The notes below the pieces were generated by a model. The model worked only from the letters and a program-made list of their open reading frames with translations. It was not told the origin of the DNA and searched no databases. This document shows, piece after piece, positions 141-12,509 of a DNA stretch of 16,611 nt. Location of the stretch: the UHGV virus genome UHGV-0310400. One strand, written 5' to 3'. The stretch is from a virus. A program made the translations under genes and the position numbers. Within the stretch, counting starts at the first letter, position 1; each line of letters starts with the position of its first letter.

Positions 141-1384
141 AAATCACCAGCAAATAATCCGTGATCAGTAATGCGAATATAAGCGACTTGCTGATTTGCT
201 GCTTTCGTTATACCACCATAAACGCGAAGGCTGCGACTCATTGGGCGATCCCACAACTCTGCAACCTGCAGTTTATTTCCTCTCACGGTCCGCGTCTCAA
301 TTACAGCAAAAAGGCGATTTCTGACAACCCCCATACTCATGCAGTGATAGTTAACTGTGGGATAGTTTTCATGTAAATCTGTAAGCCATTCCGGCGTTGT
401 CCAGGTCTTCCCGTCATCTCCTGAGCGAACCCATGCAACATGGAGGTTATTTACACCATGGCGGTCTCCAGCCATAAAAGGCGCATAGATGACATTGTCA
501 TATACAAACGTTTTATCCTGCGTCCAGGCGTTGTACCACGGTGTATCTGTAATTTTAAATAACTCTCCCTGGATAAAATCTTCAGAAGCATAAAAAAGAG
601 GCTGGCCCGGTATTCTCTCAAATAAAAAACGAGCATTTTTAAATCGACTGACATCCGGAAGAGTTGATACTTTAAAAGTAAGCCCTAATCCGTCAATTTT
701 ATAACCTGGAGATGAGGCTTCAAGGCACGCGCTTATTGCAGTGGAATCGTCATTTATACCATCACCAACAGCTCCAAAATCTTTGGGGCTAATAGCATCA
801 CGCATTTTATCCTGGAACGTTCGGTACACAGCCCCAGAACCATACTGAATAAACCAACCAAAACCACCAACAACTCCGGCGATTGCAGCATCGACATAAT
901 TACGCATTGAGCGATTATTTACAGCGTCCTGCTCAAATGATGGATCTGCAAGGTTAGAAATTTTGTTTTGCTTTGCATCGTAATATTTTGCAAGCAGAGA
1001 GGGCTTCATCAATGCACGTCTGAACCACCCAAAACATTGCTGGATCAGCATCGTCAGGTAGTCAAAGGCATCTTCATGCACTTCGGGGAAAAATTTTCCC
1101 TGATTGCGAAGGTCTGTGTCCTGCACTACATCAAGCACACGATCTATCGTAATTCGCCATCCAGTAGCAAGCGGAGACGGAAGAACCACAGAACCGCCAC
1201 TATAAGTGCCCGCCCCAGTTACCGTATAACCGGTATCCAGGACCAATTCTGTTACGTTCCCGTTCAGGTCAGACACCTGAACAACCAGGTCTGATTTTCT
1301 GAAAATTCGAAAAGTATACGGAAACGATGTCGTAACGCCGTTACCGGTGTATTCGTTGTGGTCAACTTCGGTTGAGACCGTCAT
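110..1384 (-). pseudogene. Tail fibre/tailspike gene (T7 gp17 position), 3' end truncated by IS insertion at 140/141; native sequence is 141-1384
   Basis: The 424-aa ORF has an N-terminal segment (EYTGNGVTTSFPYTF...VLDTGYTVTG...) resembling tail-attachment domains of podovirus fibres and tailspikes. It carries a DFGAVGDGINDDSTA motif (plus 758-781) typical of pectate-lyase-like beta-helix depolymerases, and an Asp-box-like SGDDGKTW (plus 401-424). The last 10 codons and the stop lie inside the IS inverted repeat (110-140). SD GGAG precedes the ATG at 1384. Confidence 0.6.
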
Positions 1385-1487
1385 GTTAAATCTCCAGATA
1401 GTCGCAGCACCCGTTGCGCCGCATATCTGGTTATTCTATTACCTGAAAAACCATATATGGATAAAAAGACTATAAATACCAATAGAT

Positions 1488-1504
1488 ATTACCTTTCGGG
1501 TAAT
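1488..1504. promoter_or_regulatory. 17-bp dyad operator-like site, copy 1 (ATTACC-TTTCG-GGTAAT)
   Basis: Perfect 6-bp inverted half-sites separated by 5 bp, in the divergent intergenic region between the tail fibre gene and the 85-aa gene. Same half-sites recur at 2608, 2701 and 3768. Confidence 0.5.
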
Positions 1505-1540
1505 TTGCAAAACGTGCTGGATAGCAAACAAATTATTTGT

Positions 1541-1560
1541 TACTGTATAAACATACAGTT
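1541..1560. promoter_or_regulatory. LexA (SOS) box
   Basis: TACTGTATAAACATACAGTT: CTGT (1543-1546), 8-nt AT-rich spacer, ACAG (1555-1558). Matches the enterobacterial LexA consensus TACTGT-N8-ACAGTA. Lies about 20 bp upstream of the SD/ATG of the 1580 gene. Confidence 0.7.
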
Positions 1561-1579
1561 ATTGCATGGAGAAGATAAG

Positions 1580-1837
1580 ATGCAGCAGTATCACTATCCA
1601 CTGGAAGACGGATTTACCGAAAGGATTCACACGCCGGGAGGCGTCAGGTCACTGGTGGAGGGATCGCACTTGATGAAATTACTCCGGGATCTCGATAAGG
1701 ATGGATTTAATGTCGATGGCCCACTTGCCGAACTGACTGCACTGATTAACTACGTCACCAGCTCACAGATGTCTATGCAGGATCTGCAAACACATCTCGA
1801 CTATTGTGCCGAACAATTACGAAAACAAACCCGGTAA
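1580..1837 (+). CDS. Small (85 aa) SOS-controlled antirepressor-like protein, paralogous to the C-terminal domain of the Bro-N antirepressor at 2986-3696
   Basis: ATG at 1580 is preceded by GGAGA (1568-1572). The track ORF from 1457 would run through the operator and LexA box, so the shorter start is preferred. Residues GVRSLVEGSHLMKLLRDLDKDGFNVDGPLAELTALINYV...DLQTHLDY align by eye with GVLGLTENSLLMNLLNQLQEDGHDVSGAAAELTTMFCYI...DIQTHAEY of the 2986 gene. Confidence 0.6.
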   Translation: MQQYHYPLEDGFTERIHTPGGVRSLVEGSHLMKLLRDLDKDGFNVDGPLAELTALINYVTSSQMSMQDLQTHLDYCAEQLRKQTR

Positions 1838-1844
1838 ATTTAAA

Positions 1845-1860
1845 GGCCGCAAGAGCGGCC
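1845..1860. terminator. Bidirectional intrinsic terminator hairpin between convergent genes
   Basis: GGCCGC-AAGA-GCGGCC perfect 6-bp GC stem, flanked by AAATTTAAA upstream and TATCGTTTCGCTTT downstream. Sits between the stop of the 1580-1837 plus gene and the stop of the 1860-2588 minus gene. Confidence 0.6.
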
Positions 1861-2588
1861 TATCGTTTCGCTTTGTGCTCGTCCCAGCACGTTTTGCACC
1901 ATGCCATTAAGCCGTCCGCATTTTGATTATTAGGGTAAAAGCTGGTCCGTTTTCTGCGGACATTACAAATTGGGCACCACTTCATATGGCGTGTATTCTT
2001 TGGGCCATCGAGGCACCTTGCACACCACTTAGTCAATCCATCTGGATTTTTTGACGATTTCCGGAATTTGTCATATGGAAGGTTTATTCTGCATCGCAAA
2101 CACTGCTTGCGGCCACTTGAAACTCTGTTAGCTGATTCTTCTTTTGGCGGCGATACAGAAGGTATTCTTGCTGGCTCTGATACTGCCTGAGGTGCTTTTT
2201 TAGATGACTGAGACGATATGTCATCACCAGGGAATCTTCCATGATATGCCGGACGCGTTGACACTCCAGGTGGAAGCTCAGCTGTAAACGGCTTTGGCTG
2301 AATCAGTTGCCTCTCTTTTGCTAACTCCTGCTGTTTATAATATGTCTGGATTACCGCACTATCATAAGCAGGAGGTACGGAAATATCAGGCGCGTTACCT
2401 CCAGTTTTTTGAAACTGAGTAGATGTGTGTTCTATCACCTGTGTACGACTAATCGTTACCTCCCCATCTTCGGTCTTTATCGTTTTGTTCTGATTAACGA
2501 CCGTACGATCAGAGATCTTAGTCTTGTTCTGGTTGATAACGTAAATAATCACCGCAACCACACCAACAACTATCCAGAAAACTTCCAT
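1860..2588 (-). CDS. Membrane-anchored protein with N-terminal TM helix, Pro/Ser-rich linker and C-terminal tandem Cys4 zinc-ribbon-like repeats; function unknown
   Basis: 242-aa ORF. N-terminus FWIVVGVVAVIIYVI is hydrophobic. C-terminus has two repeats, CLRC-x22-WCARC and CPIC-x23-WCKTC, each with DGL just before the second Cys pair. Stop codon abuts the terminator hairpin. Confidence 0.6.
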   Translation of the reverse strand: MEVFWIVVGVVAVIIYVINQNKTKISDRTVVNQNKTIKTEDGEVTISRTQVIEHTSTQFQKTGGNAPDISVPPAYDSAVIQTYYKQQELAKERQLIQPKPFTAELPPGVSTRPAYHGRFPGDDISSQSSKKAPQAVSEPARIPSVSPPKEESANRVSSGRKQCLRCRINLPYDKFRKSSKNPDGLTKWCARCLDGPKNTRHMKWCPICNVRRKRTSFYPNNQNADGLMAWCKTCWDEHKAKR

Positions 2589-2607
2589 TGCTTTTCCTCA
2601 CAATAAC

Positions 2608-2624
2608 ATTACCTTAAAGGTAAT
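2608..2624. promoter_or_regulatory. 17-bp dyad operator-like site, copy 2 (ATTACC-TTAAA-GGTAAT)
   Basis: Perfect palindrome about 20 bp upstream of the 242-aa gene start (2588, minus), in the divergent region shared with the antirepressor leader. Confidence 0.5.
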
Positions 2625-2700
2625 ATCTTGCTTTCAGGTGATCAAGCGTTAAACGCAATCAACCAAATACGGTTGATTTTAATATTTCTTCGCGTTTATC

Positions 2701-2717
2701 ATTACCTTTGCGGTAAA
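2701..2717. promoter_or_regulatory. 17-bp dyad operator-like site, copy 3 (ATTACC-TTTGC-GGTAAA)
   Basis: Same half-sites, one mismatch in the right half. Located at the start of the long leader upstream of the Bro-N antirepressor gene. Confidence 0.45.
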
Positions 2718-2751
2718 TTTACATCGCACTCCTCTTGTGCCATAGTAATCG

Positions 2752-2829
2752 GGCACTGGCAAAATCCAGTGCCGGGATTGGCGTCCCGGGTTACTAAGTG
2801 GCGCATACCACGCCAGACGTGGTTTTTTT
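2752..2829 (+). promoter_or_regulatory. Structured leader upstream of the antirepressor gene: overlapping hairpins ending in a terminator-like stem plus T7 tract; candidate attenuator or small RNA
   Basis: Hairpin GGCACTGG-caaaat-CCAGTGCC (2752-2773) overlaps hairpin CCGGGA-ttggcg-TCCCGG (2772-2789). Then CCACG-ccaga-CGTGG (2808-2822) is followed by TTTTTTT (2823-2829). An alternative pairing TGGCG (2798-2802) with CGCCA (2811-2815) competes with the terminator stem. Confidence 0.35.
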
Positions 2830-2985
2830 ATGCGTTAAGCACAGCTATATCCGAATTATGGTGGGCTGGGCAGGGGTCCGAAAGGACGCCGGTACCACTT
2901 AGGCCGGTACGCCAACCTTGTCCAGTTCACCACCAGTAATTGGCGTTGCGGTGGTGATTAAAATCACTAAGTGGAGATAACCACC

Positions 2986-3696
2986 ATGGCTAATGCTCAA
3001 ACTTCCATCTTCAAATTTGAATCTGTTAACCCTATCCGTTCCATCATTATCGATGGCCAACCATGGTTTGTAGCCCAAGACGTTTGTAGTGCGCTGCGTA
3101 TCCAAAACGTCACCCAAGCACTTGAAAAACTGGATGATGATGAAAGGTCTATGTTCAACATAGGGCATGAACATCGTGCAATTTTTGACAGCCGAGTAAA
3201 AGAGATCAACATCATCTCCGAGTCAGGCCTCTACACACTGATCCTCCGCTGCCGCGACGCAGTGACACCAGGCACTATCCCCTACCGCTTTCGTAAATGG
3301 GTTACAGGTGAGGTTCTTCCTCAGATCCGCCGCACCGGAAGCTACATTAAAAACTCGCTCCCGCAGGAAGAACGCATAAAGATGGTTGCCGACCAGGTAG
3401 CCAACGCCACGGCGTCAGCAGTAATGCAGGCGATGAAGATAGAGAACAAAACCTACAGCGCCCCACTGAAGCCCGGCTACCGTAGCCTGATTCATTCGCC
3501 GTCTGGTGTTCTCGGCCTGACGGAGAACTCACTGCTGATGAATTTGCTGAACCAGTTGCAGGAAGACGGGCACGATGTATCGGGCGCGGCGGCGGAGCTG
3601 ACAACCATGTTTTGCTACATCGTTGGTGTGAGTAAATGCCTGCGTGATATCCAGACTCACGCGGAGTACATCAACGACAAAGCAGGATTCTTCTGA
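2986..3696 (+). CDS. Phage antirepressor with N-terminal Bro-N domain
   Basis: ATG at 2986 is preceded by GGAGA (2973-2977); the track ORF from 2971 uses an upstream GTG. N-terminus IFKFESVNPIRSIIIDGQPWFVAQDVCSALRIQN matches the Bro-N signature (F.F....IR....DG.PWF.A.DV...LG). C-terminal approximately 70 aa are paralogous to the 1580-1837 product. Confidence 0.8.
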   Translation: MANAQTSIFKFESVNPIRSIIIDGQPWFVAQDVCSALRIQNVTQALEKLDDDERSMFNIGHEHRAIFDSRVKEINIISESGLYTLILRCRDAVTPGTIPYRFRKWVTGEVLPQIRRTGSYIKNSLPQEERIKMVADQVANATASAVMQAMKIENKTYSAPLKPGYRSLIHSPSGVLGLTENSLLMNLLNQLQEDGHDVSGAAAELTTMFCYIVGVSKCLRDIQTHAEYINDKAGFF

Positions 3697-3704
3697 CGGG
3701 CGGC

Positions 3705-3730
3705 GGCACAGGGATGTGCCTTTAAATAAT
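3705..3730 (+). terminator. Intrinsic terminator downstream of the antirepressor gene
   Basis: GGCACA-ggga-TGTGCC stem-loop (3705-3720) followed by TTTAAATAATT. Confidence 0.45.
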
Positions 3731-3740
3731 TCTGTACAGA

Positions 3741-3769
3741 TTGCAGACCGGGGGTGAATAGCGTACTAT
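3741..3769 (+). promoter_or_regulatory. Sigma70-like promoter for the 3810-5411 operon
   Basis: TTGCAG (3741-3746), 17-bp spacer, TACTAT (3764-3769). The -10 element overlaps operator copy 4. Confidence 0.45.
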
Positions 3770-3784
3770 TACCTTAAAGGTAAA
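3768..3784. promoter_or_regulatory. 17-bp dyad operator-like site, copy 4 (ATTACC-TTAAA-GGTAAA)
   Basis: Identical to copy 2 over 16 of 17 bp. Overlaps the -10 and predicted transcription start of the cargo operon promoter. A second small inverted repeat CATGT-gttt-ACATG (3786-3799) follows. Confidence 0.5.
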
Positions 3785-3809
3785 CCATGTGTTTACATGA
3801 GGAGGAGAT

Positions 3810-4019
3810 ATGGGATTTTGGTTCGCTCGTACAAAAACGAGGGATAATGCACCCAGCCCTCAGGCAAAAAATACAGAAGTTCCGGCGTCAGCGCAGGTTA
3901 ACAAGCGTGGTGGTGTGTATATCTCATCACAGCAAATTTCTGAGCTTCCTGAGGTTAAGGAGATGCGTCGTCTCGCTGCTGCAATCGTTAAACAGGATCT
4001 TGCCACTGTAAGGAAATAG
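3810..4019 (+). CDS. Small (69 aa) hypothetical protein, first gene of the cargo operon
   Basis: Strong SD AGGAGG (3800-3805) 4 nt before the ATG at 3810. Stop TAG overlaps the GTG start of the next gene (TAGTG). Preferred over the alternative-frame ORF 3787-4011, which lacks an RBS. Confidence 0.5.
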   Translation: MGFWFARTKTRDNAPSPQAKNTEVPASAQVNKRGGVYISSQQISELPEVKEMRRLAAAIVKQDLATVRK

Positions 4020-4882
4020 TGTTGTTAGCTCTTCTAATTATCCCCATTCTGGTTAGTGGTTATATTATGATAACCGCTAACCAGTATCATTATTTCCGTT
4101 TATACCGACATGAAGGCCAGCTTCTTTATATGAAAGTAGCTGCATTAGGTACATATTGCCTTGTTGCTTCTGTAATAATTGCCGCATTTATAAAATATAA
4201 ATATCCTGATTTTCACCTAGTTCACGATATGGTGGAAACTTTTAATGTAACGTCAAAACCAGAAACAGATAGAATTTACATGTGGCTACTTCTTCTGTCA
4301 GTCACATCAATTTGCTTCTCTTTGTGTTATGTATCTTTTGTTTGGCTAAAAGATCTTCTTTTAGGTTGTTTTTATAAACGTGATATTTATGACAAAATAT
4401 CAGAGGCAATGAAAGCTAGGGTATTGCGAAAAACGTACTCCCAGGGTTCTTTAGATTTGCTATTGCTTGATGCAATCGAATCAGATCCTAAGAAACCAAT
4501 GTTAATTACTTTATCATCAAATAAAGTATACGTTGGAATAATAAATGGTTCTGGTGAGCCAACGGAAAATCAAGGGCCACACCAACACATATCTTTTGTT
4601 CCTTTAATGTCAGGGTACAGAAACAAAGAAAATTTATCTGTTACATTTACAAACGCTTACCCAGGTGAAATCCAAATTAAGCGCAGTGCTGCGATAAAAG
4701 GGATAAGCAAAAAGAAAGTTCAAGGTCTAGAAATTATGGTATCTATAGACGAAATAAGTCATATATCATGGTTTGACTTTGAAGTATATAAGGCAACAAA
4801 TAACAAAGTAGAAACAAAGGGTCATGTTGTTAATGTGACCAAAAATGGTCGCAACATATACTACAGAAGTGGCAGGAAATAA
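4019..4882 (+). CDS. Multi-pass membrane protein (about 3 TM helices) with a soluble C-terminal domain of roughly 170 aa; AT-rich cargo gene of unknown function
   Basis: 287-aa ORF. Hydrophobic segments LLALLIIPILVSGYIMI, MKVAALGTYCLVASVIIAAFI and YMWLLLLSVTSICFSLCYVSFVWL. Base composition is visibly more AT-rich than the flanking virion genes. GTG start is coupled to the upstream stop; an internal ATG at 4067 is an alternative. Confidence 0.65.
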   Translation: MLLALLIIPILVSGYIMITANQYHYFRLYRHEGQLLYMKVAALGTYCLVASVIIAAFIKYKYPDFHLVHDMVETFNVTSKPETDRIYMWLLLLSVTSICFSLCYVSFVWLKDLLLGCFYKRDIYDKISEAMKARVLRKTYSQGSLDLLLLDAIESDPKKPMLITLSSNKVYVGIINGSGEPTENQGPHQHISFVPLMSGYRNKENLSVTFTNAYPGEIQIKRSAAIKGISKKKVQGLEIMVSIDEISHISWFDFEVYKATNNKVETKGHVVNVTKNGRNIYYRSGRK

Positions 4883-4907
4883 ATTTTACGCAGTTTAGGT
4901 GGCTTAT

Positions 4908-5411
4908 ATGGATAATACTATCTTAGGCGCATTGATAGGTGCTGTTATTGCTATAGTTTCCACTTATATAAATGCAGGACAAGGATACAAAAACAGCATA
5001 AGATTAGAGCGACAAAAAATATTAAGGGATAAACGCGAGCAATTATTTATAAATTGTATACTTACTAAAAAAGTCATAGATTCAAGCACAATTACCATTC
5101 TCAATTTCGTAAAAAATGCCAGATACCACTCTGATAGTAAATTTGACGTATCAAGAGCGAATCCGTTGCAAACGATGGAAATGCTAATAAACATATACCT
5201 TCCTGAGTATAAAAAAGACTTACAAGAACTCAATAATGCGTATCAAGAATTTCACAAATACTACTCTCAATATACATGTGCACATACCTTCAAAAATATG
5301 CCTGATAATGAGAAGTCGAGGTTTATTGAGGAGGCTGATTTTTATGCAAAAAAGATATATGGCAAACTTAATGATATTAAGGACAAGATATCATTAAACT
5401 CAATAGTATAA
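4908..5411 (+). CDS. Single-pass membrane protein (N-terminal TM helix plus soluble domain of about 140 aa); AT-rich cargo gene of unknown function
   Basis: ATG at 4908 with SD AGGTGG (4897-4902); the track ORF starts at an upstream GTG at 4899. N-terminus NTILGALIGAVIAIVSTYI is hydrophobic. Very AT-rich. Followed by a GC-rich palindrome and the terminator at 5496-5513. Confidence 0.6.
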   Translation: MDNTILGALIGAVIAIVSTYINAGQGYKNSIRLERQKILRDKREQLFINCILTKKVIDSSTITILNFVKNARYHSDSKFDVSRANPLQTMEMLINIYLPEYKKDLQELNNAYQEFHKYYSQYTCAHTFKNMPDNEKSRFIEEADFYAKKIYGKLNDIKDKISLNSIV

Positions 5412-5462
5412 CAGCGATACTGCCGCTGACGGCTCCCGCTGCGGTGGGCGTTCTGCGGATTC

Positions 5463-5474
5463 CCGCCCGGGCGG
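5463..5474. repeat. Perfect 12-bp GC palindrome CCGCCCGGGCGG inside a short GC-rich intergenic segment
   Basis: The segment from about 5415 to 5485 is strongly GC-rich between two AT-rich genes and contains this palindrome plus flanking CCGCTG/CAGCGG repeats. Confidence 0.4.
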
Positions 5475-5495
5475 CGGTGGCATTCGTTAAAAACA

Positions 5496-5513
5496 AGGCC
5501 GCGAAAGCGGCCT
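5496..5513. terminator. Bidirectional intrinsic terminator between convergent cargo genes
   Basis: AGGCCGC-gaaa-GCGGCCT 7-bp stem. On the minus strand it is followed by TTGTTTTT, on the plus strand by TGTTTGAT. Lies directly after the stop of the 5520-6371 gene. Confidence 0.6.
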
Positions 5514-5519
5514 GTTTGA

Positions 5520-6371
5520 TCACTGTGCAGTTTTCGCTGATCGATTTTCAGCTCTAAATTCAAGAACCGTTTCAATATTTCTTTCCTTCAGCATATCAAT
5601 AACATTTTTATTCATTTGACTATCACTGGTTAATAACTGGTAAACGTCGCTTCTCTCTTTATCAGAGTTTTCTTTAACAGCTGCTTTGCATGCCAAATGC
5701 TTATTGAAATTTTCTACATCGCTAGTACAGGAATTTACGGCTGCTGATGAAATATCAGACGCTGAAGAAACACCATCATCCAAACGTTTTATAGCATTTT
5801 CTATACATGAGTTAAGGGAATAAACGACAACTGAGCGATACCCTTCAGACGCACACCATTCTAAATTTCTTGAAGGATCGAGTGGTTTTACTTCGCTGGA
5901 TTGAATTAACTTGTCAAAAACTGACTTATATTCAATCTGTTTTTTATCTATAGCCCATACTTCAGTAGCTGATTTATAATTCCCCGTATGCCTATTAACA
6001 TCAAATCCATGTTTTATAAGCAAATCTGCCCATGAAAGATTTATTGATTCATTGTTATGAGGCCATTTTCCTGTCAGAACCGCCCCCATAGACCCCATAT
6101 ATCCGCCATATGATGGTATAGCACCATGGCTCAGTAACTTCTCAGCAACCACAGGGCAATTAATTACATAAGAGGCGTAAAGCCCATTCCATAAAGCCCC
6201 TCTATAGTAATCGCCACGATTAGGTTCTTTTAAGTCGATAGCCTTTGATAATTGTTCACACGTTTTGCATGCATCAAAGTTATCCTTATTGCATTGCAAT
6301 GAACTGGCAGCTGTAGGATTTACAGAGACTATTGAAAGCACTATGCCAAAAAACAAATTTATTTTTTTCAT
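5520..6371 (-). CDS. Secreted/periplasmic protein with cleavable signal peptide; AT-rich moron coupled to the last virion gene; function unknown
   Basis: 283-aa ORF. N-terminus MKKINLFFGIVLSIVSVNPTAASS is a classical Sec signal peptide. Multiple cysteines in the mature part. Start lies 2 nt from the stop of the 1129-aa gene. AT-rich relative to the virion genes. Confidence 0.65.
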   Translation of the reverse strand: MKKINLFFGIVLSIVSVNPTAASSLQCNKDNFDACKTCEQLSKAIDLKEPNRGDYYRGALWNGLYASYVINCPVVAEKLLSHGAIPSYGGYMGSMGAVLTGKWPHNNESINLSWADLLIKHGFDVNRHTGNYKSATEVWAIDKKQIEYKSVFDKLIQSSEVKPLDPSRNLEWCASEGYRSVVVYSLNSCIENAIKRLDDGVSSASDISSAAVNSCTSDVENFNKHLACKAAVKENSDKERSDVYQLLTSDSQMNKNVIDMLKERNIETVLEFRAENRSAKTAQ

Positions 6372-6372
6372 C

Positions 6373-9300
6373 CTATTTCATCTGCTCTTCAACTTTATTT
6401 AGTAATGGTGATATCGCCCACAGGTTCTGAAAAGGTAGCATTTTACGGACCGCGTGGGTTTGCTGGCTGTCAAATTCTCCGTTAAGTACACCATTCGCAA
6501 CCGTCGCGGCATCACCGCCAAGATCAAAGGTAGGACCAAGTAAAGCACCAATAGCATTACGACTCTGAAACCTTGATACCGGAGGCGCACCAAACATCGC
6601 GCCAAGACCAAACCTACCACCGCTTATGTTCTCAACGGTATTCAGCGGCTCAGAGAGCCAGCCAAGCATTCCGCCCCGGTCGATCCCCTCTTTCACAAGG
6701 TTATTCCAGCTGTAGTCAATATCGCGACCGCTTAACTTCTGTTTCATCATATAGACCATTGAGCCAAGCGCAATCGTGCCAAGCGCACCAAGATAGAATG
6801 CAGCATCGCCCTGCTGGATACCAGATACCAGCACCCTGTTATGCTGTGCGAAGATAAACGTTTTGAACTGCGTGATCATCTTCCAGCCTTCTTTACTAAA
6901 AAACAGCGGTGTATCACCTACGCCAGGCGTTACAATCACTGAGTCTACATCTTTCAGCACTGCAGACTGGAAAATCTCTCTAGCGAAACGGTCATCCCAC
7001 AGATGACTATGCCCGGTTAACAGCCCGTCCATATCCTCTCCGTGCTTCCCGAATTGCTCCCCGATTCGACGCAGAACATCTTCATTGATGCCGACCTGTG
7101 CCATCTTCCGCATTTCACTTTTGGAGAGCGTGCCACCAGCAGAAACTTGGCGAGCCGCGTCAAGTATCCTCGACTGCACTATCATCCCAGACCATGATTT
7201 AAGTGCGCTGTTCCACTGATTCATCAGCGTCCAGTTACCGAATTTCTGCGTCATCCAGTTCAGACCTCGCTCAGCGGCGCTTCTCCGGCTATAGGGGTCA
7301 GTAAGATCCGCTATAGCCTTTGTACGCGTAGACAGGACATAATCAAGCCCAACGGCCATTTCTCGCAAATCCCTGGTTGCAATTTTCACTGAGTCCATAT
7401 TTTTAAGCATGCTTACCATTGGTCCGAGAGATTTTCTCAGGCCATGCTGCATCATCGGTCGCATCAGATCAGTTGCAGCGGAGACAGTCATTCCACCAAG
7501 CAAACGGAGGAAGTTAATATTCCTAGCAACTCGCCCGGCACGAACAAAGAAACTGCGTGGATCTTGAGGTGCACCGTAAGTACCAAGCAGTCGATCACGC
7601 ATAGCCGTAATATCCCTAATATCAGCCTCCCGTTGCTTCTCAAGAACTGCACGTCGTTTAGGTGTTTTAGCCTCTTTTATTAGCCGGGTATATTCCTCAC
7701 TAACCTGACGGATTTGCTCCCCCATATCTTTACGGCCAAACTGCGCAGTCAGCTCAATTTCTGGTGCCACCTGCCGGAGATAACTTTCCATGATGTAGTT
7801 AACATCTGATTCAAGAAAATCTTCTATACGCTCATCAGGAATAAGCAGCGTTCTGCTTTTAGTGAAACCAGCCCGACCAACGAGTCTCTCTGGGATAATA
7901 TCGGCTGGTACAAGCCCGGAAGGTGCGCCTATTATTTTATTCACGATCTCGTCAGCAGCGTCCTCTGCTTCCTCTCGGGATAGAGGCTCCATCTGCTTCA
8001 GTGCTCGTTCGCGGCTTGCATTCAGCCTTGTGGTTGAATTTGCCCGTTTTTGCAGTCGGCGAAGCTCAGAACGATATTTCCGTGGATTATCCAGCAACTC
8101 CATATGGCGCTGATAGACAGGAAGCTCACTCTTTGCCTGCGCTATATCATCAAGGCGTGTTTTAAGGTCAGAGCTTTCTTTCATCATTCTTGCCTGAAGT
8201 TTTTCTGATGAAGTCTCGGCCAACTCTTTTTCTATTCTTGTAAGACGCGCCTGTGTGTCAGTCTCCTGAGATATAAGCTTATTTCGTTTATCCAGTTCTT
8301 CCATGAGTAGAATTTTTTTACCAGACCATTTCTCCGCTTCAGCGATTTCACTAGCGAGAGCATCAGCGCGCGGTGCCGATTCCTCTGCAGTTTTTAGCAA
8401 TGAATTTATCCTTTCAATTCGCTGACCTGCCTTGTCAGCACCTTTGGCACTAATCCCTTGTATCCAGTTGGCAATTCGCCCTCTGAATTCAGTGCGGTCG
8501 GAAAGTATCTTATCGAACTTATAAATGCGGGGAAGATAACTTTTCGCCGTCACGACATCGATATCCTCAGGAAGGATCCCCAGTTCCTGCATACGGGCTT
8601 TTGTGATCTCGAAAATGGGGCGGATTCTGGCGGCTGCTTGTGAAACCTCAGGAATATCACTCTGATCACCACGGCGCATGGCCATGCCAACAGCTTCATT
8701 GAAATCAATAAAGTTCATCCTCTTCACGCCGCGGGCGCTAACAGATTTGCTGTACTGCTGATAAGCATCACTAGTGGCTTCCATCTGCTTATAAAGCATG
8801 GCGTCGTATTGCTTAATCTTAGTCTCGACTGCCGTAAACGTAGCCAACCCCTCATCATTTTTGGCGAAGAAATAGTTATTTTCGGCAAGCTGCTGGTTAA
8901 TCTGACGGGAGACAAGAGATGGTGATTGCGCCAAGCGGCCAGCAGGAGTGACACTCAACGTTTTGTTAGCAAGTCCAAGTCCAGCGAGCTGTTCCTGATC
9001 GAGTGTGGTATTGAAAACCTGAGCTGCACCAATGCTTTGAGGAGAATCCATACCTCGCAAATGATTACCTACTGAGTTAACCACTGCCTCGCGCGCGCTA
9101 GGTCCAGCAAGTAGCTGTGCACCAGCACCAAGGATCCCACCAACGAGAGCATCAACAACAACGTTCGATACGCTCTCCATCGGTGAGCGAGCTTCCTGAG
9201 TGGCCTGTAATGCGGCTTCTGATACTCCCCCACCAGCAGCATTCGCCAGGGCAAAACGCCCTGCCGTCTCAGCAATACTTCCTCCACGCGCTACCGCCCC

Positions 9301-9762
9301 TACAGGGATGAACATTGCAGCCACATTAACCGGGTCTATCATTCCCATTGCTAAGCTTGAAATAGTACCAGCACCACCCATTTCAGATAGATATTCTCTA
9401 TCTGTTCTTTGCTTATCGATTCGATGTTTAATTGCCATTGTTTCTTCATGCGAACCGGAGTTGATAAACGAATCTGCAAAATCTTCATAGCCTTTAATAT
9501 CTGCTGCATCGTTATCAAATGGGTTATATCCTTCAACCCTGTCAAACTGACTGAAAGGAGCACTGGCAATAAAGCTACCCAGCGTGTTATCTATACGAAA
9601 TGCTGCTTGTCTAGACCTTTGAACGCGTTGATCACTGGTAAATGGGTTCACAGCAGAAAGCAAAGAAGGTGTTTCCATATAGAAATTACTGTCATCAGGT
9701 GCTGCTATTTGCTGAATATCCTCGCCAAGCAACTCTTTAGGATCCTGTTCATATATCGGCAT
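6373..9762 (-). CDS. Large internal virion/ejection protein (T7 gp16 position)
   Basis: 1129-aa ORF. Gly/Ala-rich hydrophobic N-terminal region (GGAGTISSLAMGMIDPVNVAAMFIPVGAVARGG...) and a central coiled-coil-like charged region (..EKELAETSSEKLQARMMKESSDLKTRLDDIAQAK..). Assigned by position and size in the gp11-to-gp16 series; no direct homology recognised. Confidence 0.55.
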   Translation of the reverse strand: MPIYEQDPKELLGEDIQQIAAPDDSNFYMETPSLLSAVNPFTSDQRVQRSRQAAFRIDNTLGSFIASAPFSQFDRVEGYNPFDNDAADIKGYEDFADSFINSGSHEETMAIKHRIDKQRTDREYLSEMGGAGTISSLAMGMIDPVNVAAMFIPVGAVARGGSIAETAGRFALANAAGGGVSEAALQATQEARSPMESVSNVVVDALVGGILGAGAQLLAGPSAREAVVNSVGNHLRGMDSPQSIGAAQVFNTTLDQEQLAGLGLANKTLSVTPAGRLAQSPSLVSRQINQQLAENNYFFAKNDEGLATFTAVETKIKQYDAMLYKQMEATSDAYQQYSKSVSARGVKRMNFIDFNEAVGMAMRRGDQSDIPEVSQAAARIRPIFEITKARMQELGILPEDIDVVTAKSYLPRIYKFDKILSDRTEFRGRIANWIQGISAKGADKAGQRIERINSLLKTAEESAPRADALASEIAEAEKWSGKKILLMEELDKRNKLISQETDTQARLTRIEKELAETSSEKLQARMMKESSDLKTRLDDIAQAKSELPVYQRHMELLDNPRKYRSELRRLQKRANSTTRLNASRERALKQMEPLSREEAEDAADEIVNKIIGAPSGLVPADIIPERLVGRAGFTKSRTLLIPDERIEDFLESDVNYIMESYLRQVAPEIELTAQFGRKDMGEQIRQVSEEYTRLIKEAKTPKRRAVLEKQREADIRDITAMRDRLLGTYGAPQDPRSFFVRAGRVARNINFLRLLGGMTVSAATDLMRPMMQHGLRKSLGPMVSMLKNMDSVKIATRDLREMAVGLDYVLSTRTKAIADLTDPYSRRSAAERGLNWMTQKFGNWTLMNQWNSALKSWSGMIVQSRILDAARQVSAGGTLSKSEMRKMAQVGINEDVLRRIGEQFGKHGEDMDGLLTGHSHLWDDRFAREIFQSAVLKDVDSVIVTPGVGDTPLFFSKEGWKMITQFKTFIFAQHNRVLVSGIQQGDAAFYLGALGTIALGSMVYMMKQKLSGRDIDYSWNNLVKEGIDRGGMLGWLSEPLNTVENISGGRFGLGAMFGAPPVSRFQSRNAIGALLGPTFDLGGDAATVANGVLNGEFDSQQTHAVRKMLPFQNLWAISPLLNKVEEQMK

Positions 9763-12509
9763 TATTTGCCCCCTGCGTATATATTGCTCGGAAGGTAATT
9801 GGCTGAACCATAACCGAATGGTTTGGTCAGATCTGGAGGAGTATATCCATCTTTATTGCTGAACTGCGGCAGCGGATTGCCTTCTCTCCGCACTCTAGCC
9901 TCATCAACACGCTGTTGCTGGAACTGAATGGTTTGCCTGTACATTGGAGATGTCAGCTGATCCGGCTTGAAACGAACAGGGAGACCATTTTCTCCAATAT
10001 AATTTCTCGGTTCTATCGCTCCGTTTGCGTCAGGCTGTAAAACCATAACAGCATAACTCCTATCCCTTGCCGTAAGGCCATCAGAAACAAGTATTAAGTC
10101 CGTATCACTGCGAGGACCGCCAAAGGATTTTGATTTAAGCTCGCGTTTTTCCTGCTCCCACTGCCCCTGTATCCAGTTACCAGCACCATTATTTACTCCG
10201 TACAATGCCTCAGGTGCATACTTCATAACCTCTGCTTTGCCATTAACCGTAGAAACTCCCCAAGTGGTTCTGATCATGGCATTGGTCATTTTCTCAGCCT
10301 GTTCTGCATCGCCACCTGTCTGTACAAAGTTAGCATCGTAAATTGTCTGGTAATCTCGCTGATAGGCCGCATTTGATTTTCCTGGATCGGTAATATCCGG
10401 AGACCACGAACCAAAGGAAGTCAGACTGCTGGCGTTATTTTGTGCAGCAGTTGCCCTCGCCGCGACATATTTTTTGTCTCGCATGGCAGTGGAAAGCATC
10501 TGTTTCATTCGGTCATCCTGTTGGAACACCTGGCTGTAAGCCATATCAACAGCCTTATCCTCCGGCACGCCAGCGCGGGAATAATCGTAAACCTTGCCGT
10601 AAAATGCCATCGTACTTTTATCAAGTGTTGCCGCTGCCGCCGGATTATTATCGAATAACTGACCGTAGAATTTTGCCATCGGGACAACCAGCGCAGGATC
10701 TCTTGATGTTGCTCCACTGTTAAGCATTGTTTTAACCTGAGTTGGTATCATGCCGCTTTTAGTTGTGACGGTGACCAGTGTATTGATGCTCTGCGGATCA
10801 GATATGGAAAACGAAGGCGCGATATCCTGCGCGAAATAACGGTCTACCGCTGCCTGATTGTTTTTGTCGTTCGGGTCCAGCGGGAAGTTATTTTGCATTG
10901 AAGACACGAACCTGTTTCTTCCCTGCTGAATCTCCCACTCCCTATCCATCTCTTTAAATTTGGCCTGCATTTTCTCCCAGCGTTGCTGGTTAGCTGCAAA
11001 TCCAGGAGCGTTTGGATCCTGTGGACGTAAACGTTCAAGAATGTCTTGTCGTCCTTCTGGAGTGAGGTCTTTAGCGGCACCAATGACACCTCCATATTGT
11101 ATCTGCGCCTGCATATCCTTCCACTTCATAGCGCCAATGCGCGGACCATTGGCCCGGATAAAATCGTCCTCAGAAGGTAACTGCTCAGGTTTCAATCCTT
11201 CATCAAGGGCTGAATATGCATCTTTAACTACGGTGCTAAGCTGGTCCGCATACTGCTGGCGGTACTGATTTCTCAGCTCATTAGCCTGCCTCAATGCCTG
11301 TATTTGCATTTGAGGGCTCATAGCATCAAATGCCGCATTGCCCGTATAACGCTTAGGTGAATCAAGGTTAGTTAGACCAAGGGCTGCCGAGATACCAGTT
11401 TCAAGCTGTTCGGTGCTATAAGGCATACTGCCATTTTCGTGTTTAATAATCCCAGCACATAAAGCAGCTAGTGTCTTTGGGTTAGAGATATCAAGCTGAT
11501 CATTCTCCCCAACACCAAGCTCACCACACAATGCCCTAATATAAGCATCAGTATTATTACCATCACTAGCCGGAGCATAACGATTAACAATCTCGCTAAC
11601 GGTGTCATAGCCTTGACGCTGGTAAGACAACATATTTTTACCCAACGCGCGGATTCCATGCTCAGGGGTAGCAAACGTTGCAAAACGTCCATCGCTACCG
11701 ATCTGACCTTCCCACGGGTTAGATTTGCTCGCTTCAATATTACCAGGATTATTATTACGTAAACCACGAGCATCCAATGAATTACCATGTGACATTGCAC
11801 GGCTCACACCGTCAAGATCCCCTGGCTCTCCATTAACCTGAAGAAACTCGTTGTATTTTTGAGCGATATTTCCTATCCATGCTTGCTGCCCCATTTGTTC
11901 CTTGAGCTGAGTTTTCTGCTGAACACGCCACTCATCAGGAAGCCCATGCGCATCAGCGTATTGATCAATAGATTCAAATCGCTGCTTGGCTAAATCGACA
12001 AATGCTTGGTTATCGCTATATAGCCCCGCAGACTGAGTGACAGCCAATGCATTTCCTGACAAATACGTTTGATCTTGGAATTGCTGAAACTGCCCAACTT
12101 CATATCGACGTGCCTGATTGTAATAAGACTGCATAGACTGCTGGAGTTGAAAGGATAATTTATTCCTTTCCTCACTTTCAGGAATTGAGCCTAATAATGC
12201 CTGAGCCCTTTCCTGCATATTTTTCATAACAGCGTCACTCTGACCAAGAGCGTTTTTACCCTGTTTAGAAATCAGCCCATTTTCTGGGTTGTTAATCTGG
12301 TCATCTGCAAATTGGTTAAATTGCAGTAACGCCTCCTGGGCCATAGCAACATTCGCTTTCTGCCTGGCTTCACCATATGCCACCGCATACTGATCTGCGA
12401 CATTCGCCAGCACCTGACCTGCTTGAGGAACATCGAAGGTTTGAAAACCACCGGTTTGCACACCACGACTTTGCACCTGGCGTCCGGATGTAGTAGGAAC
12501 AACAGGCAT
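9762..12509 (-). CDS. Internal virion/ejection protein (T7 gp15 position) with a conserved motif block that may be a cell-wall-active domain
   Basis: 915-aa ORF, start overlapping the upstream stop. Residues about 245-330 (plus 11520-11777) contain RGLRNNNPGNIEASKSNPWEGQ...GRFATFATPEHGIRA, which looks like a conserved enzymatic motif; the family is not identified with certainty. Confidence 0.55.
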   Translation of the reverse strand: MPVVPTTSGRQVQSRGVQTGGFQTFDVPQAGQVLANVADQYAVAYGEARQKANVAMAQEALLQFNQFADDQINNPENGLISKQGKNALGQSDAVMKNMQERAQALLGSIPESEERNKLSFQLQQSMQSYYNQARRYEVGQFQQFQDQTYLSGNALAVTQSAGLYSDNQAFVDLAKQRFESIDQYADAHGLPDEWRVQQKTQLKEQMGQQAWIGNIAQKYNEFLQVNGEPGDLDGVSRAMSHGNSLDARGLRNNNPGNIEASKSNPWEGQIGSDGRFATFATPEHGIRALGKNMLSYQRQGYDTVSEIVNRYAPASDGNNTDAYIRALCGELGVGENDQLDISNPKTLAALCAGIIKHENGSMPYSTEQLETGISAALGLTNLDSPKRYTGNAAFDAMSPQMQIQALRQANELRNQYRQQYADQLSTVVKDAYSALDEGLKPEQLPSEDDFIRANGPRIGAMKWKDMQAQIQYGGVIGAAKDLTPEGRQDILERLRPQDPNAPGFAANQQRWEKMQAKFKEMDREWEIQQGRNRFVSSMQNNFPLDPNDKNNQAAVDRYFAQDIAPSFSISDPQSINTLVTVTTKSGMIPTQVKTMLNSGATSRDPALVVPMAKFYGQLFDNNPAAAATLDKSTMAFYGKVYDYSRAGVPEDKAVDMAYSQVFQQDDRMKQMLSTAMRDKKYVAARATAAQNNASSLTSFGSWSPDITDPGKSNAAYQRDYQTIYDANFVQTGGDAEQAEKMTNAMIRTTWGVSTVNGKAEVMKYAPEALYGVNNGAGNWIQGQWEQEKRELKSKSFGGPRSDTDLILVSDGLTARDRSYAVMVLQPDANGAIEPRNYIGENGLPVRFKPDQLTSPMYRQTIQFQQQRVDEARVRREGNPLPQFSNKDGYTPPDLTKPFGYGSANYLPSNIYAGGK

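Follow-up and report, generated by a model that had tools for sequence, protein, structure and literature searches.

The four copies of a 17 bp dyad which we have studied, ATTACC-N5-GGTAA(T/A), are very probably operators of Rep, the master lysogeny repressor of a Uetakevirus prophage (epsilon15/phiV10/SPC32H type); this is the best explanation we have found. They lie in a stretch of 16,611 nucleotides from the virus genome UHGV-0310400, which we call the window. The window is an epsilon15/phiV10-like (Uetakevirus) prophage: Its virion genes match those of EC.W1-9, TL-2011b, phiV10 and epsilon15, and a guaA-integrated E. coli prophage (L006) is 99.5% identical to it. The dyads are real copies of an operator which has already been annotated for the repressor of this type, so that the finding is correct but ordinary. 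The original prediction, in which they tie several genes into one regulon, is essentially right.

Dyads in the window

Sequence reading and a pattern search find the dyad at all four positions where it had been reported (no strand is assigned):

1488–1504, O1: ATTACCTTTCGGGTAAT, between the divergent small ant and tailspike genes
2608–2624, O2: ATTACCTTAAAGGTAAT, a perfect palindrome, 20 bp upstream of the start of the 242 aa membrane/zinc-ribbon gene (minus strand)
2701–2717, O3: ATTACCTTTGCGGTAAA, upstream of the isrK-C4-ant operon
3768–3784, O4: ATTACCTTAAAGGTAAA, overlapping the -10/+1 region of the cargo operon promoter

The pattern gives eight strand-matches in the window, while 0.14 are expected, and none of 200 dinucleotide shuffles reaches this number. 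Two of the sites fit ATTACC-N5-GGTAAT perfectly and the other two have a single mismatch. O2 and O4 differ at only one of 17 positions, as had been noticed. All four dyads are upstream of genes and none is found in the virion genes: Intergenic DNA, which amounts to 851 bp (5.1% of the window), holds all four sites with at most one mismatch, while the 15.7 kb of coding DNA only contain degenerate matches with two or three mismatches. Dyad pairs are often phased, with a distance of 62 bp in nine cases and 93 bp in the window. We infer that paired sites may be joined by looping. As the original prediction recognized, no gene in the window codes for the binding protein.

Genes and promoters next to the dyads

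The region around O1 contains the following features:

1518–1559, plus strand: predicted ant promoter, TGGATA (1518–1523), 17 bp spacer and TACTGT (1541–1546), with a LexA box, TACTGTATAAACATACAGT (1541–1559), from sequence reading
1580–1837, plus strand: small SPC32H-type antirepressor Ant, 85 aa, which matches PDB 5D50 chain E, "Anti-repressor protein" (E 4e-47, 83 residues)

By homology and promoter layout, the 1580–1837 reading frame is a predicted LexA-controlled antirepressor of Rep, of the SPC32H type. The blocks which correspond to its promoter and LexA box are invariant in six phages; in the same six phages the half-sites of O1 are invariant, with a variable spacer. O1 aligns column for column with positions 19895–19911 of epsilon15, annotated as "protein_bind repressor", and with the SPC32H site at 20012. 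It had been proposed that O1 controls the SOS antirepressor-like gene. The identity of this gene is borne out, since it is an SPC32H-type Ant, but the LexA-controlled promoter has its predicted start about 57 bp downstream of O1, and O1 is outside the promoter core. A role on the divergent tailspike side, or an action through looping, is therefore more plausible for O1. No convincing core promoter is found under O1 on either strand.

O2 precedes the zinc-ribbon gene:

1860–2588, minus strand: 242 aa protein, hydrophobic in an N-terminal segment and with zinc-ribbon repeats at the C-terminus (phrog_6762)

This protein weakly matches endonuclease VII and Lar-like zinc ribbons. O2 is identical in L006, and sequence reading suggests a candidate minus-strand promoter, TTGATC-17-TACCTT, whose -10 is inside O2.

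O3 is found between two tandem predicted promoters, at the head of an operon which codes for a second antirepressor:

2673–2702, plus strand: predicted promoter TTGATT-18-TATCAT; the last two bases of its -10 are also the first two of O3
2718–2746, plus strand: predicted isrK promoter TTTACA-17-CATAGT, TG-extended, whose -35 abuts O3
2753–2829, plus strand: isrK-like sRNA and terminator (Rfam RF01394, 67.7 bits, E 6.6e-13)
2854–2937, plus strand: C4-type antisense RNA element, within the ant leader (Rfam RF01695, 66 bits, E 3.5e-11)
2986–3696, plus strand: Bro-N antirepressor, 236 aa (Pfam Bro-N, 9.6e-20; PHROG anti-repressor families)

The isrK promoter is predicted to start transcription at about 2753, where position 1 of the isrK model also falls. 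O3 is conserved in four phages, with a variable spacer; its orthologues are found in phiV10, Tyrion and EC.W1-9. By sequence reading, the -10 equivalent to that of the upstream promoter is TATTAT in EC.W1-9, TATTAT in Tyrion and TATATT in phiV10, with TTGAAA, TTGTAA and TTGCAA, respectively, as -35. The Bro-N antirepressor matches phrog_450 (residues 153–234). Its C-terminal residues 155–228 align with the small Ant (BLASTP, 42% identity, E 9e-16), and this apparent homology between the two antirepressors is mildly new.

O4 is followed by the cargo operon:

3741–3769, plus strand: predicted cargo promoter, TTGCAG (3741–3746), 17 bp spacer and TACTAT (3764–3769), from sequence reading
3810–5411, plus strand: AT-rich cargo operon with three genes (69, 287 and 170 aa)

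The overlap of O4 with the -10 of this promoter had been foreseen: The dyad starts at the last two bases of the predicted TACTAT. The promoter is kept in two relatives, L006 and EC.W1-9 (with TAAAAT as -10), EC.W1-9 also has an orthologue of O4, and the promoter-operator-RBS block is conserved in 20 viral contigs. Downstream of this block the cargo is swapped exactly at the start codon. The cargo proteins belong to PHROG families of unknown function, and the last two have hydrophobic N-termini, as seen by reading the sequence. We have considered a defence system and rejected it: A PADLOC search with the cargo and zinc-ribbon genes gives no defence-system match, and their Pfam and PHROG matches are marginal or correspond to families of unknown function.

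The overlap of O3 and O4 with predicted sigma-70 -10/+1 regions, for which we predict transcription starts at about 2709 and 3776, would fit repression by occlusion. A mildly new aspect is that both antirepressor genes and the swappable cargo slot carry predicted Rep operators.

Related phages and the Rep repressor

The dyad is not restricted to the genes of the window. From nine to twelve copies per sequence are found in EC.W1-9, phiV10, epsilon15, Tyrion, SPC32H and L006. In an E. coli genome, chance alone would give about 0.3 perfect copies of the 12-base dyad. In the four genomes which we have checked against their annotation, each of them 92–93% coding, 40 of 43 dyads are intergenic, so the motif does not have a similar density inside genes, and it marks the start of almost every transcription unit. 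The proposed regulon is thus supported as a shared operator set, but it is not special to the genes initially suggested: It covers the whole phage. Dyad clusters flank rep on both sides, in an arrangement like that of OR and OL: Three graded dyads separate rep from a cro-like gene; on the downstream side of rep there are two or three, of which one is centred on the +1 of the strongest promoter, TTGACA-17-(A/G)ATTAT. The dyad of the lysis operon is found 105 bp upstream of the first gene in three relatives (phiV10, epsilon15 and SPC32H). A universal rule in which the -10 is fused to the operator does not hold: A clear TAnnAT hexamer is fused to the dyad in 21 of 67 sites, about a third, which makes it one recurrent design.

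The rep gene would be outside the window, about 27 kb from the dyads. A rep gene of the NLVNRW type is present in L006 (36403–36987) and in all five related phages. The Rep proteins of the relatives match the crystallised SPC32H Repressor (PDB 5D50_A) over their full length, with E 4e-42. The PDB and Pfam matches are of the HTH_3/Cro-C1 type; in Pfam they correspond to HTH domains alone, with no S24 peptidase domain, which sets Rep apart from the autocleavable switches of LexA/CI type. The Rep proteins of these phages are 43% identical overall, while NLVNRW is invariant and the dyad is the same. Six further Rep homologues from enterobacterial prophages have NLVNRW (TLVNRW in L011), and all of them present dyads at -70/-87/-117 and +640/+700/+780. 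On the other hand, five distant Rep relatives with a different helix have neither these dyads nor an alternative repeated dyad. This covariation in 11 loci appears supportive, not decisive: The recognition helix was part of the search patterns, and the close Rep matches therefore share NLVNRW by construction.

The original prediction called for one dimeric DNA-binding protein. A single sequence-specific protein from outside the window is supported and can be named as Rep, which we infer to bind the dyads physically. It would not be a simple dimer, as a tetramer of SPC32H Rep is reported to bind palindromic DNA (PMC9638917). In ZX5, a related phage, overexpression of an identical repressor reduces holin and endolysin transcripts by more than 99.9% (PMC9782041). 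Induction runs through antirepressors, as the same work and the match of the small Ant to PDB 5D50_E indicate.

It is very unlikely that another phage regulator is the main binder. The candidates would be the 76 aa cro-like protein divergent from rep, which matches a PHROG "transcriptional repressor" family, or the conserved "transcriptional regulator" which ends the early-right operon (epsilon15 gp49, phiV10 p55). In lambdoid switches Cro shares its operators with CI, and phages with Reps of only 43% identity share the same dyad, so a more conserved binder is conceivable. Nevertheless, the recognition helix of Rep is invariant in spite of this divergence, the presence or absence of dyads follows this helix in the 11 independent loci, and the epsilon15 annotators assigned the dyads to the repressor. 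The cro-like protein could share the dyads with Rep, which would add to Rep binding and not replace it. Activation by the bound protein at some sites (O1, O3 and late-operon sites), from class I or class II positions, is unlikely. The clearest cases (PL, cargo and terS) overlap -10/+1 regions, O3 also covers the -10/+1 of the upstream promoter, and Rep overexpression in ZX5 shuts down lysis genes (PMC9782041). The position of some sites would suit an activator: the centre of O3 is at about -44 relative to the isrK promoter (about -41 in phiV10), from where some repressors activate; O1 is about 70 bp upstream of the tailspike start, if the conserved TAGAAT at 1433–1438 is the tailspike -10; and several late-operon sites are found 90–105 bp before start codons without overlapping any strong promoter. 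But the distance from O3 to the -10 is different by 3 bp in the window and in phiV10, so that face-specific activation is hard to reconcile with these data.

Two other readings leave DNA binding by a regulator aside. The dyads might be mainly recombination junctions at module boundaries with no regulatory role, as the exchange of cargo after O4 exactly at the start codon, with promoter, operator and RBS kept, could indicate. This is highly unlikely, given that the cargo is exchanged about 25 bp downstream of the dyad and not within it, and that most dyads are found in conserved, non-mosaic regulatory regions such as OR and OL. RNA hairpins acting after transcription, as processing, antitermination or translational elements, are extremely unlikely because the folding energies are weak, from -3.7 to -5.3 kcal/mol in all but one case, even though each dyad can fold into a stem of 5–7 bp with a loop of 3–5 nt and one conserved site has a Shine-Dalgarno sequence in its spacer, 3 nt before the start codon. 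In addition, the half-site sequence itself is conserved and not mere complementarity, the common GGTAAA variant breaks the terminal pair, both orientations occur, and several dyads are upstream of predicted transcription starts. We have also rejected a site for a host factor such as CpxR, whose site is GTAAA-N5-GTAAA, because the dyad has inverted and not direct half-sites and because no copy of the motif is found in about 8 kb of host flanks of L006.

Proposed switch and known systems

Rep (for example, WP_000836290.1) would be a non-cleavable repressor in which an N-terminal HTH is joined to a C-terminal oligomerisation domain, and its conserved recognition helix NLVNRW would read ATTACC-N5-GGTAAT. 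The operator would be built into or beside sigma-70 promoters at nearly all transcription-unit starts of the phage, so that bound Rep would silence the prophage by occluding the -10/+1 or the -35 region. In the window, it would act through O1 on the divergent tailspike/small ant region, through O2 on the zinc-ribbon gene, through O3 on the isrK-C4-Bro-N ant operon and through O4 on the cargo operon, presumably as a repressor in each case. Induction would start when SOS takes LexA off the small ant promoter. Ant would then strip Rep from DNA and every operator-bearing promoter would open, including that of the second antirepressor, which would give positive feedback. A more ambitious version seems doubtful to us: A single Rep tetramer species would directly gate all units (early, late, lysis, both antirepressor genes and the swappable cargo slot) through about 12 operators, many in loopable phased pairs, and timing after induction would depend on operator affinity and on the feedback of two antirepressors with the same Rep-binding domain (LexA-gated small Ant and isrK/C4-gated Bro-N-Ant fusion), not on a dedicated late activator.

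The closest known case is epsilon15, in the same genus, which has the same 17 bp dyad. Its record (NC_004775.2/AY150271) annotates seven dyads as "protein_bind: repressor; lysogeny", which are predictions and not footprints; all seven are ATTACC-N5-GGTAAT. They are found at the same genomic positions: terS, the portal operon, ant/tailspike, OL and downstream of the replication genes. O2, O3 and O4 have no annotated counterpart there because epsilon15 has neither the isrK-C4-Bro-N ant module nor the cargo slot. Kropinski et al. reportedly gave, in 2007, the consensus ATTACCWDWWNGGTAAT for the epsilon15 repressor sites. Full-text searches of the literature for this consensus, and for ATTACC/GGTAAT together with the word "repressor", yielded no relevant match.

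In P1, one master repressor, C1, acts on many operators scattered over the genome, and the dispersed operators of Rep are similar in this respect. P1 operators are asymmetric 17-mers, ATTGCTCTAATAAATTT, bound by a C1 monomer. The sites in the window are symmetric dyads, unlike those of P1, and do not belong to the P1 C1 type, although their dispersed arrangement works as in P1. Within our tests, which give PDB and Pfam matches of the HTH_3/Cro-C1 type for Rep, C1 and Rep show no sequence relationship. The similarity extends to the immI operon of P1 (c4 RNA, icd, ant), where an antirepressor is under both the master repressor and a C4 antisense RNA (PMC8201110); the ant operon of the window also has an Rfam C4 match. 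Similarities with the CI/Cro operators of lambda and P22 are the 17 bp dyads with a variable centre and the tripartite OR/OL arrangement, in which three graded sites separate the divergent genes for the repressor and the cro-like protein, and the leftward early promoter has two or three. Unlike CI, Rep lacks an S24 peptidase domain, its inactivation depends on antirepressors, and its operators are found beyond OL and OR, also at late, lysis and accessory operons.

The lytic switch formed by Rep and Ant in SPC32H (PDB 5D50/5D4Z; Kim & Ryu 2013; Kim et al. 2016) is the one to which the small Ant of the window belongs. The LexA box of SPC32H ant is in the same place and its genome has the same dyads in the same places, although the Rep type found here is only about 43% identical to SPC32H Rep. 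Unlike SPC32H, the window phage also codes for a larger Bro-N antirepressor besides the small one, controlled by isrK/C4 RNA and with a C-terminus like that of the small Ant.

In summary, the operator was already known and raises no new question, but its case confirms that a genuine set of operators can be recognized from raw sequence alone. For the annotation of Uetakeviruses, the dyad reliably marks where transcription units start. The Rep/Ant switch of the SPC32H type probably extends to prophages of the E. coli K1 type, where acquired modules appear to be wired into the regulon of the master repressor: an sRNA-controlled second antirepressor, a zinc-ribbon gene and a variable membrane-protein cargo.

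Dyads in the window and in related phages

The window is part of an epsilon15/phiV10-like podophage of the genus Uetakevirus. Among phages it is closest to Escherichia phage EC.W1-9 (78% coverage, 97.9% identity), with further matches over the virion genes to TL-2011b, phiV10, Tyrion and epsilon15. An E. coli prophage integrated beside guaA is 99.5% identical over 141-6400, the cargo region excepted. An IS903B (IS5-family) element, whose end occupies positions 1 to ~140, truncates or interrupts an endosialidase-type tailspike gene (110-1384). The tailspike product has an N-terminal endosialidase (K1 capsule-degrading) domain, a beta-propeller and a beta-barrel. The source prophage is probably tailspike-defective.

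Four copies of a 17-bp inverted repeat, ATTACC-N5-GGTAA(T/A), are found in the window, with exactly the positions and sequences of the original prediction.

Dyads in the window
O1, 1488-1504: ATTACCTTTCGGGTAAT
O2, 2608-2624: ATTACCTTAAAGGTAAT
O3, 2701-2717: ATTACCTTTGCGGTAAA
O4, 3768-3784: ATTACCTTAAAGGTAAA

A pattern search of the window with up to one mismatch gives 8 strand-matches (0.14 expected), a number reached in none of 200 dinucleotide shuffles. All four dyads lie in intergenic DNA, which amounts to 851 bp (5.1% of the window), and coding DNA contains only degenerate matches with 2-3 mismatches. One of these, ATTGCTCGGAAGGTAAT (9783-9799, 2 mismatches), precedes the start of a 1129-aa virion gene by 21 nt and is kept in EC.W1-9 and the CUVET20 prophage; an operator role is improbable for it.

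The proposed genome-wide scan has been run, with up to one mismatch, on the complete genomes of EC.W1-9, phiV10, epsilon15, Tyrion and SPC32H and on the near-identical prophage. Each of these six sequences contains 9-12 dyads. In four genomes, each 92-93% coding, 40 of the 43 dyads are intergenic, and two of the three exceptions are due to an over-extended terS annotation in phiV10. The host flanks of the near-identical prophage (~8 kb) contain no dyad.

Conserved dyad positions in the relatives
terS: 20 bp upstream
Portal operon: 90 bp upstream
Interval between ant and the tailspike gene: 76 bp from one start codon and 104-106 bp from the other
Lysis operon: 105 bp upstream
Downstream of rep, two or three dyads
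Between rep and the cro-like gene, one to three dyads
After the replication genes, a pair

The consensus of 62 unique sites is a-TTACC-wwWww-GGTAA-t, in which the outermost base and the spacer are free. Paired dyads are spaced by 62 bp (nine times), 17-18 bp or 76 bp, and by 93 bp in the type found in the window. Exact 62-bp pairs are present at two loci in six related sequences (L001-L006): One locus is downstream of rep, the other follows the replication genes. In the second pair, the spacer of the downstream dyad holds the next gene's Shine-Dalgarno sequence, 3 nt before the ATG.

The binding protein

The element is already known: It has been predicted in epsilon15, and its repressor and antirepressor have been studied in SPC32H. 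The RefSeq/GenBank record of epsilon15 has seven "protein_bind; repressor; lysogeny" features, and all seven are the ATTACC-N5-GGTAAT dyad. O1 and the feature at 19895-19911 occupy the same columns of an alignment in which the half-sites are invariant in six phages and the spacer varies (TTTCG, TTTCA, TTACA, GATAA). The operator consensus of the 2007 epsilon15 genome paper by Kropinski et al. is reportedly ATTACCWDWWNGGTAAT, which fits the annotated sequences.

The same dyads are found in the same places in SPC32H, also a Uetakevirus. Rep, the master lysogeny repressor, has 194-198 aa in the relatives, with an HTH at the N-terminus and an HTH_3-like domain at the C-terminus; a domain search finds no S24 peptidase domain in it. 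It matches over its full length the crystallised SPC32H "Repressor" (5D50_A, E 4e-42), and the small Ant encoded in the window (1580-1837) matches the SPC32H "Anti-repressor protein" (5D50_E, E 4e-47). In the account of Kim et al. 2016 given in PMC9638917, SPC32H Rep is reported to be tetrameric on palindromic sites and to be dismantled by a tetrameric Ant. Paired dyads are compatible with bridging by such a tetramer.

Rep proteins of the phiV10 and epsilon15/SPC32H types are only 43% identical, and their predicted recognition helix, NLVNRW, is invariant, which fits their identical operators. Six more enterobacterial prophage homologues have this helix (TLVNRW in one), and all six loci have dyads at -70/-87/-117 and +640/+700/+780 relative to rep. 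In five distant relatives of the N-terminal domain, with a different helix, the dyad is absent within 1.5 kb. This co-occurrence of helix and dyad disfavours a cro-like protein or another regulator as the binder instead of Rep. The repressor of the related phage ZX5, described as identical to the phiV10 repressor, lowers holin and endolysin transcripts by >99.9% when overexpressed (PMC9782041). By every criterion that can be applied to sequences, O1-O4 appear as members of the Uetakevirus Rep operator set. The suggestion that one DNA-binding protein controls several genes is thus supported, and its scope widens to the whole phage.

Promoters and cargo genes

Features around the dyads
1541-1559: LexA box
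1860-2588, minus strand: zinc-ribbon gene
2753-2829: isrK (Rfam, 67.7 bits)
2854-2937: C4 antisense RNA (Rfam, 66 bits)
2986-3696: Bro-N antirepressor gene
3810-5411, plus strand: cargo operon

The overlap of O4 with a -10 is confirmed: O4 shares its first two bases with the end of the -10 of a predicted promoter, TTGCAG-17-TACTAT (3741-3769), so it spans about -8 to +9. O3 shares its first two bases with the end of the -10 of another, TTGATT-18-TATCAT (2673-2702). The -35 of the predicted isrK promoter, TTTACA-17-CATAGT (2718-2746), directly adjoins the other end of O3. Both features are also found in EC.W1-9, Tyrion and phiV10. A protein on O3 would obstruct both tandem promoters. Between O2 and O3 there is a terminator-like hairpin (2657-2678), AATCAACC-AAATAC-GGTTGATT followed by a T-run, whose 3' arm is the source of the TTGATT -35. 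O2 is found 20 bp before the zinc-ribbon start codon and includes a candidate -10 read from the sequence (TTGATC-17-TACCTT, minus strand).

O1 overlaps no convincing core promoter. For the small ant promoter the best reading is TGGATA-17-TACTGT, whose -10/+1 carries the LexA box; O1 is then near -57. A TAGAAT hexamer conserved on the tailspike side (1433-1438, minus strand) is ~70 bp away from O1. The tailspike leader contains a block (1433-1460), CATTCTATTACC...AACCxTATATG, kept in all six phages, where a lone ATTACC half-site overlaps this -10-like hexamer; the epsilon15 record places an IHF site between the block and the operator. Among the other dyads of the genome, one is centred on +1 of the strongest leftward early promoter, TTGACA-17-(A/G)ATTAT. 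A TAnnAT hexamer is fused to the dyad in 21 of 67 sites, a design that recurs without being a rule.

In 20 viral contigs (L018-L037), the block of promoter, operator, leader and Shine-Dalgarno sequence (3741-3812; 9350-9425 in the near-identical prophage, L006) is conserved as far as the ATG. The cargo genes behind it differ.

Cargo types
Type A: proteins of 69 and 287/288 aa, the latter with 291 aa in a single contig; a variable third gene usually comes next
Type B: membrane peptides of 62-66 and 110-115 aa

The N-terminus of a 170-aa cargo protein of the window (4899-5411) is hydrophobic. In Pfam this protein matches the nucleoside 2-deoxyribosyltransferase-like YtoQ only marginally, below the cut-off (E 0.004), and PADLOC gives no match for it.

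Other roles for the dyads may be considered. A purely recombinational function, as junctions, is contradicted, since the cargo breakpoint is at the ATG, ~25 bp past the dyad. Action as RNA hairpins is a weak alternative: Folds are weak in 7 of 8 cases (-3.7 to -5.3 kcal/mol), and sequence is conserved, not pairing. Activation instead of repression is possible at O1 or O3, whose positions allow it, but the 3-bp spacing difference at O3 between the window and phiV10 weakens this idea.

Two antirepressors and proposed control of lysogeny

The Bro-N antirepressor gene has isrK and C4 in tandem in its leader, an RNA control module of the P1 immI / Gifsy-1 isrK-anrP type, here inside a podophage. 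Residues 155-228 of the Bro-N antirepressor (236 aa) are homologous to the small Ant (85 aa; 42% identity, E 9e-16; phrog_450). This shared C-terminal domain indicates that the phage has two antirepressors, one LexA-gated and one sRNA-gated, and, from their homology, a single Rep domain is probably the docking site of both. In P1, Ant expression is under C1 and C4 antisense RNA (PMC8201110), a double control echoed by O3 if it blocks the isrK-C4-ant promoters.

With repression by Rep as the preferred reading, Rep on the dyads of a lysogen would block RNA polymerase at nearly all phage promoters. DNA damage would release LexA from the small ant promoter, and Ant would strip Rep from DNA. All dyad-bearing promoters would then open, including that of the isrK-C4-ant operon. 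After relief of the RNA-level block, for which Gifsy-1 isrK/anrP is a precedent (PMC4825925), the Bro-N antirepressor would reinforce Rep inactivation as a feedback, because its C-terminal domain is homologous to the small Ant.

The dyads would work like the dispersed C1 operators of P1 and like lambda OR/OL, but are members of neither: P1 operators are not symmetric, while the dyads are, and lambda CI has an autocleavage domain, absent from Rep. Two aspects are modestly new. Both antirepressor genes carry predicted Rep operators, and so does a conserved promoter-operator-RBS "socket" with exchangeable cargo.
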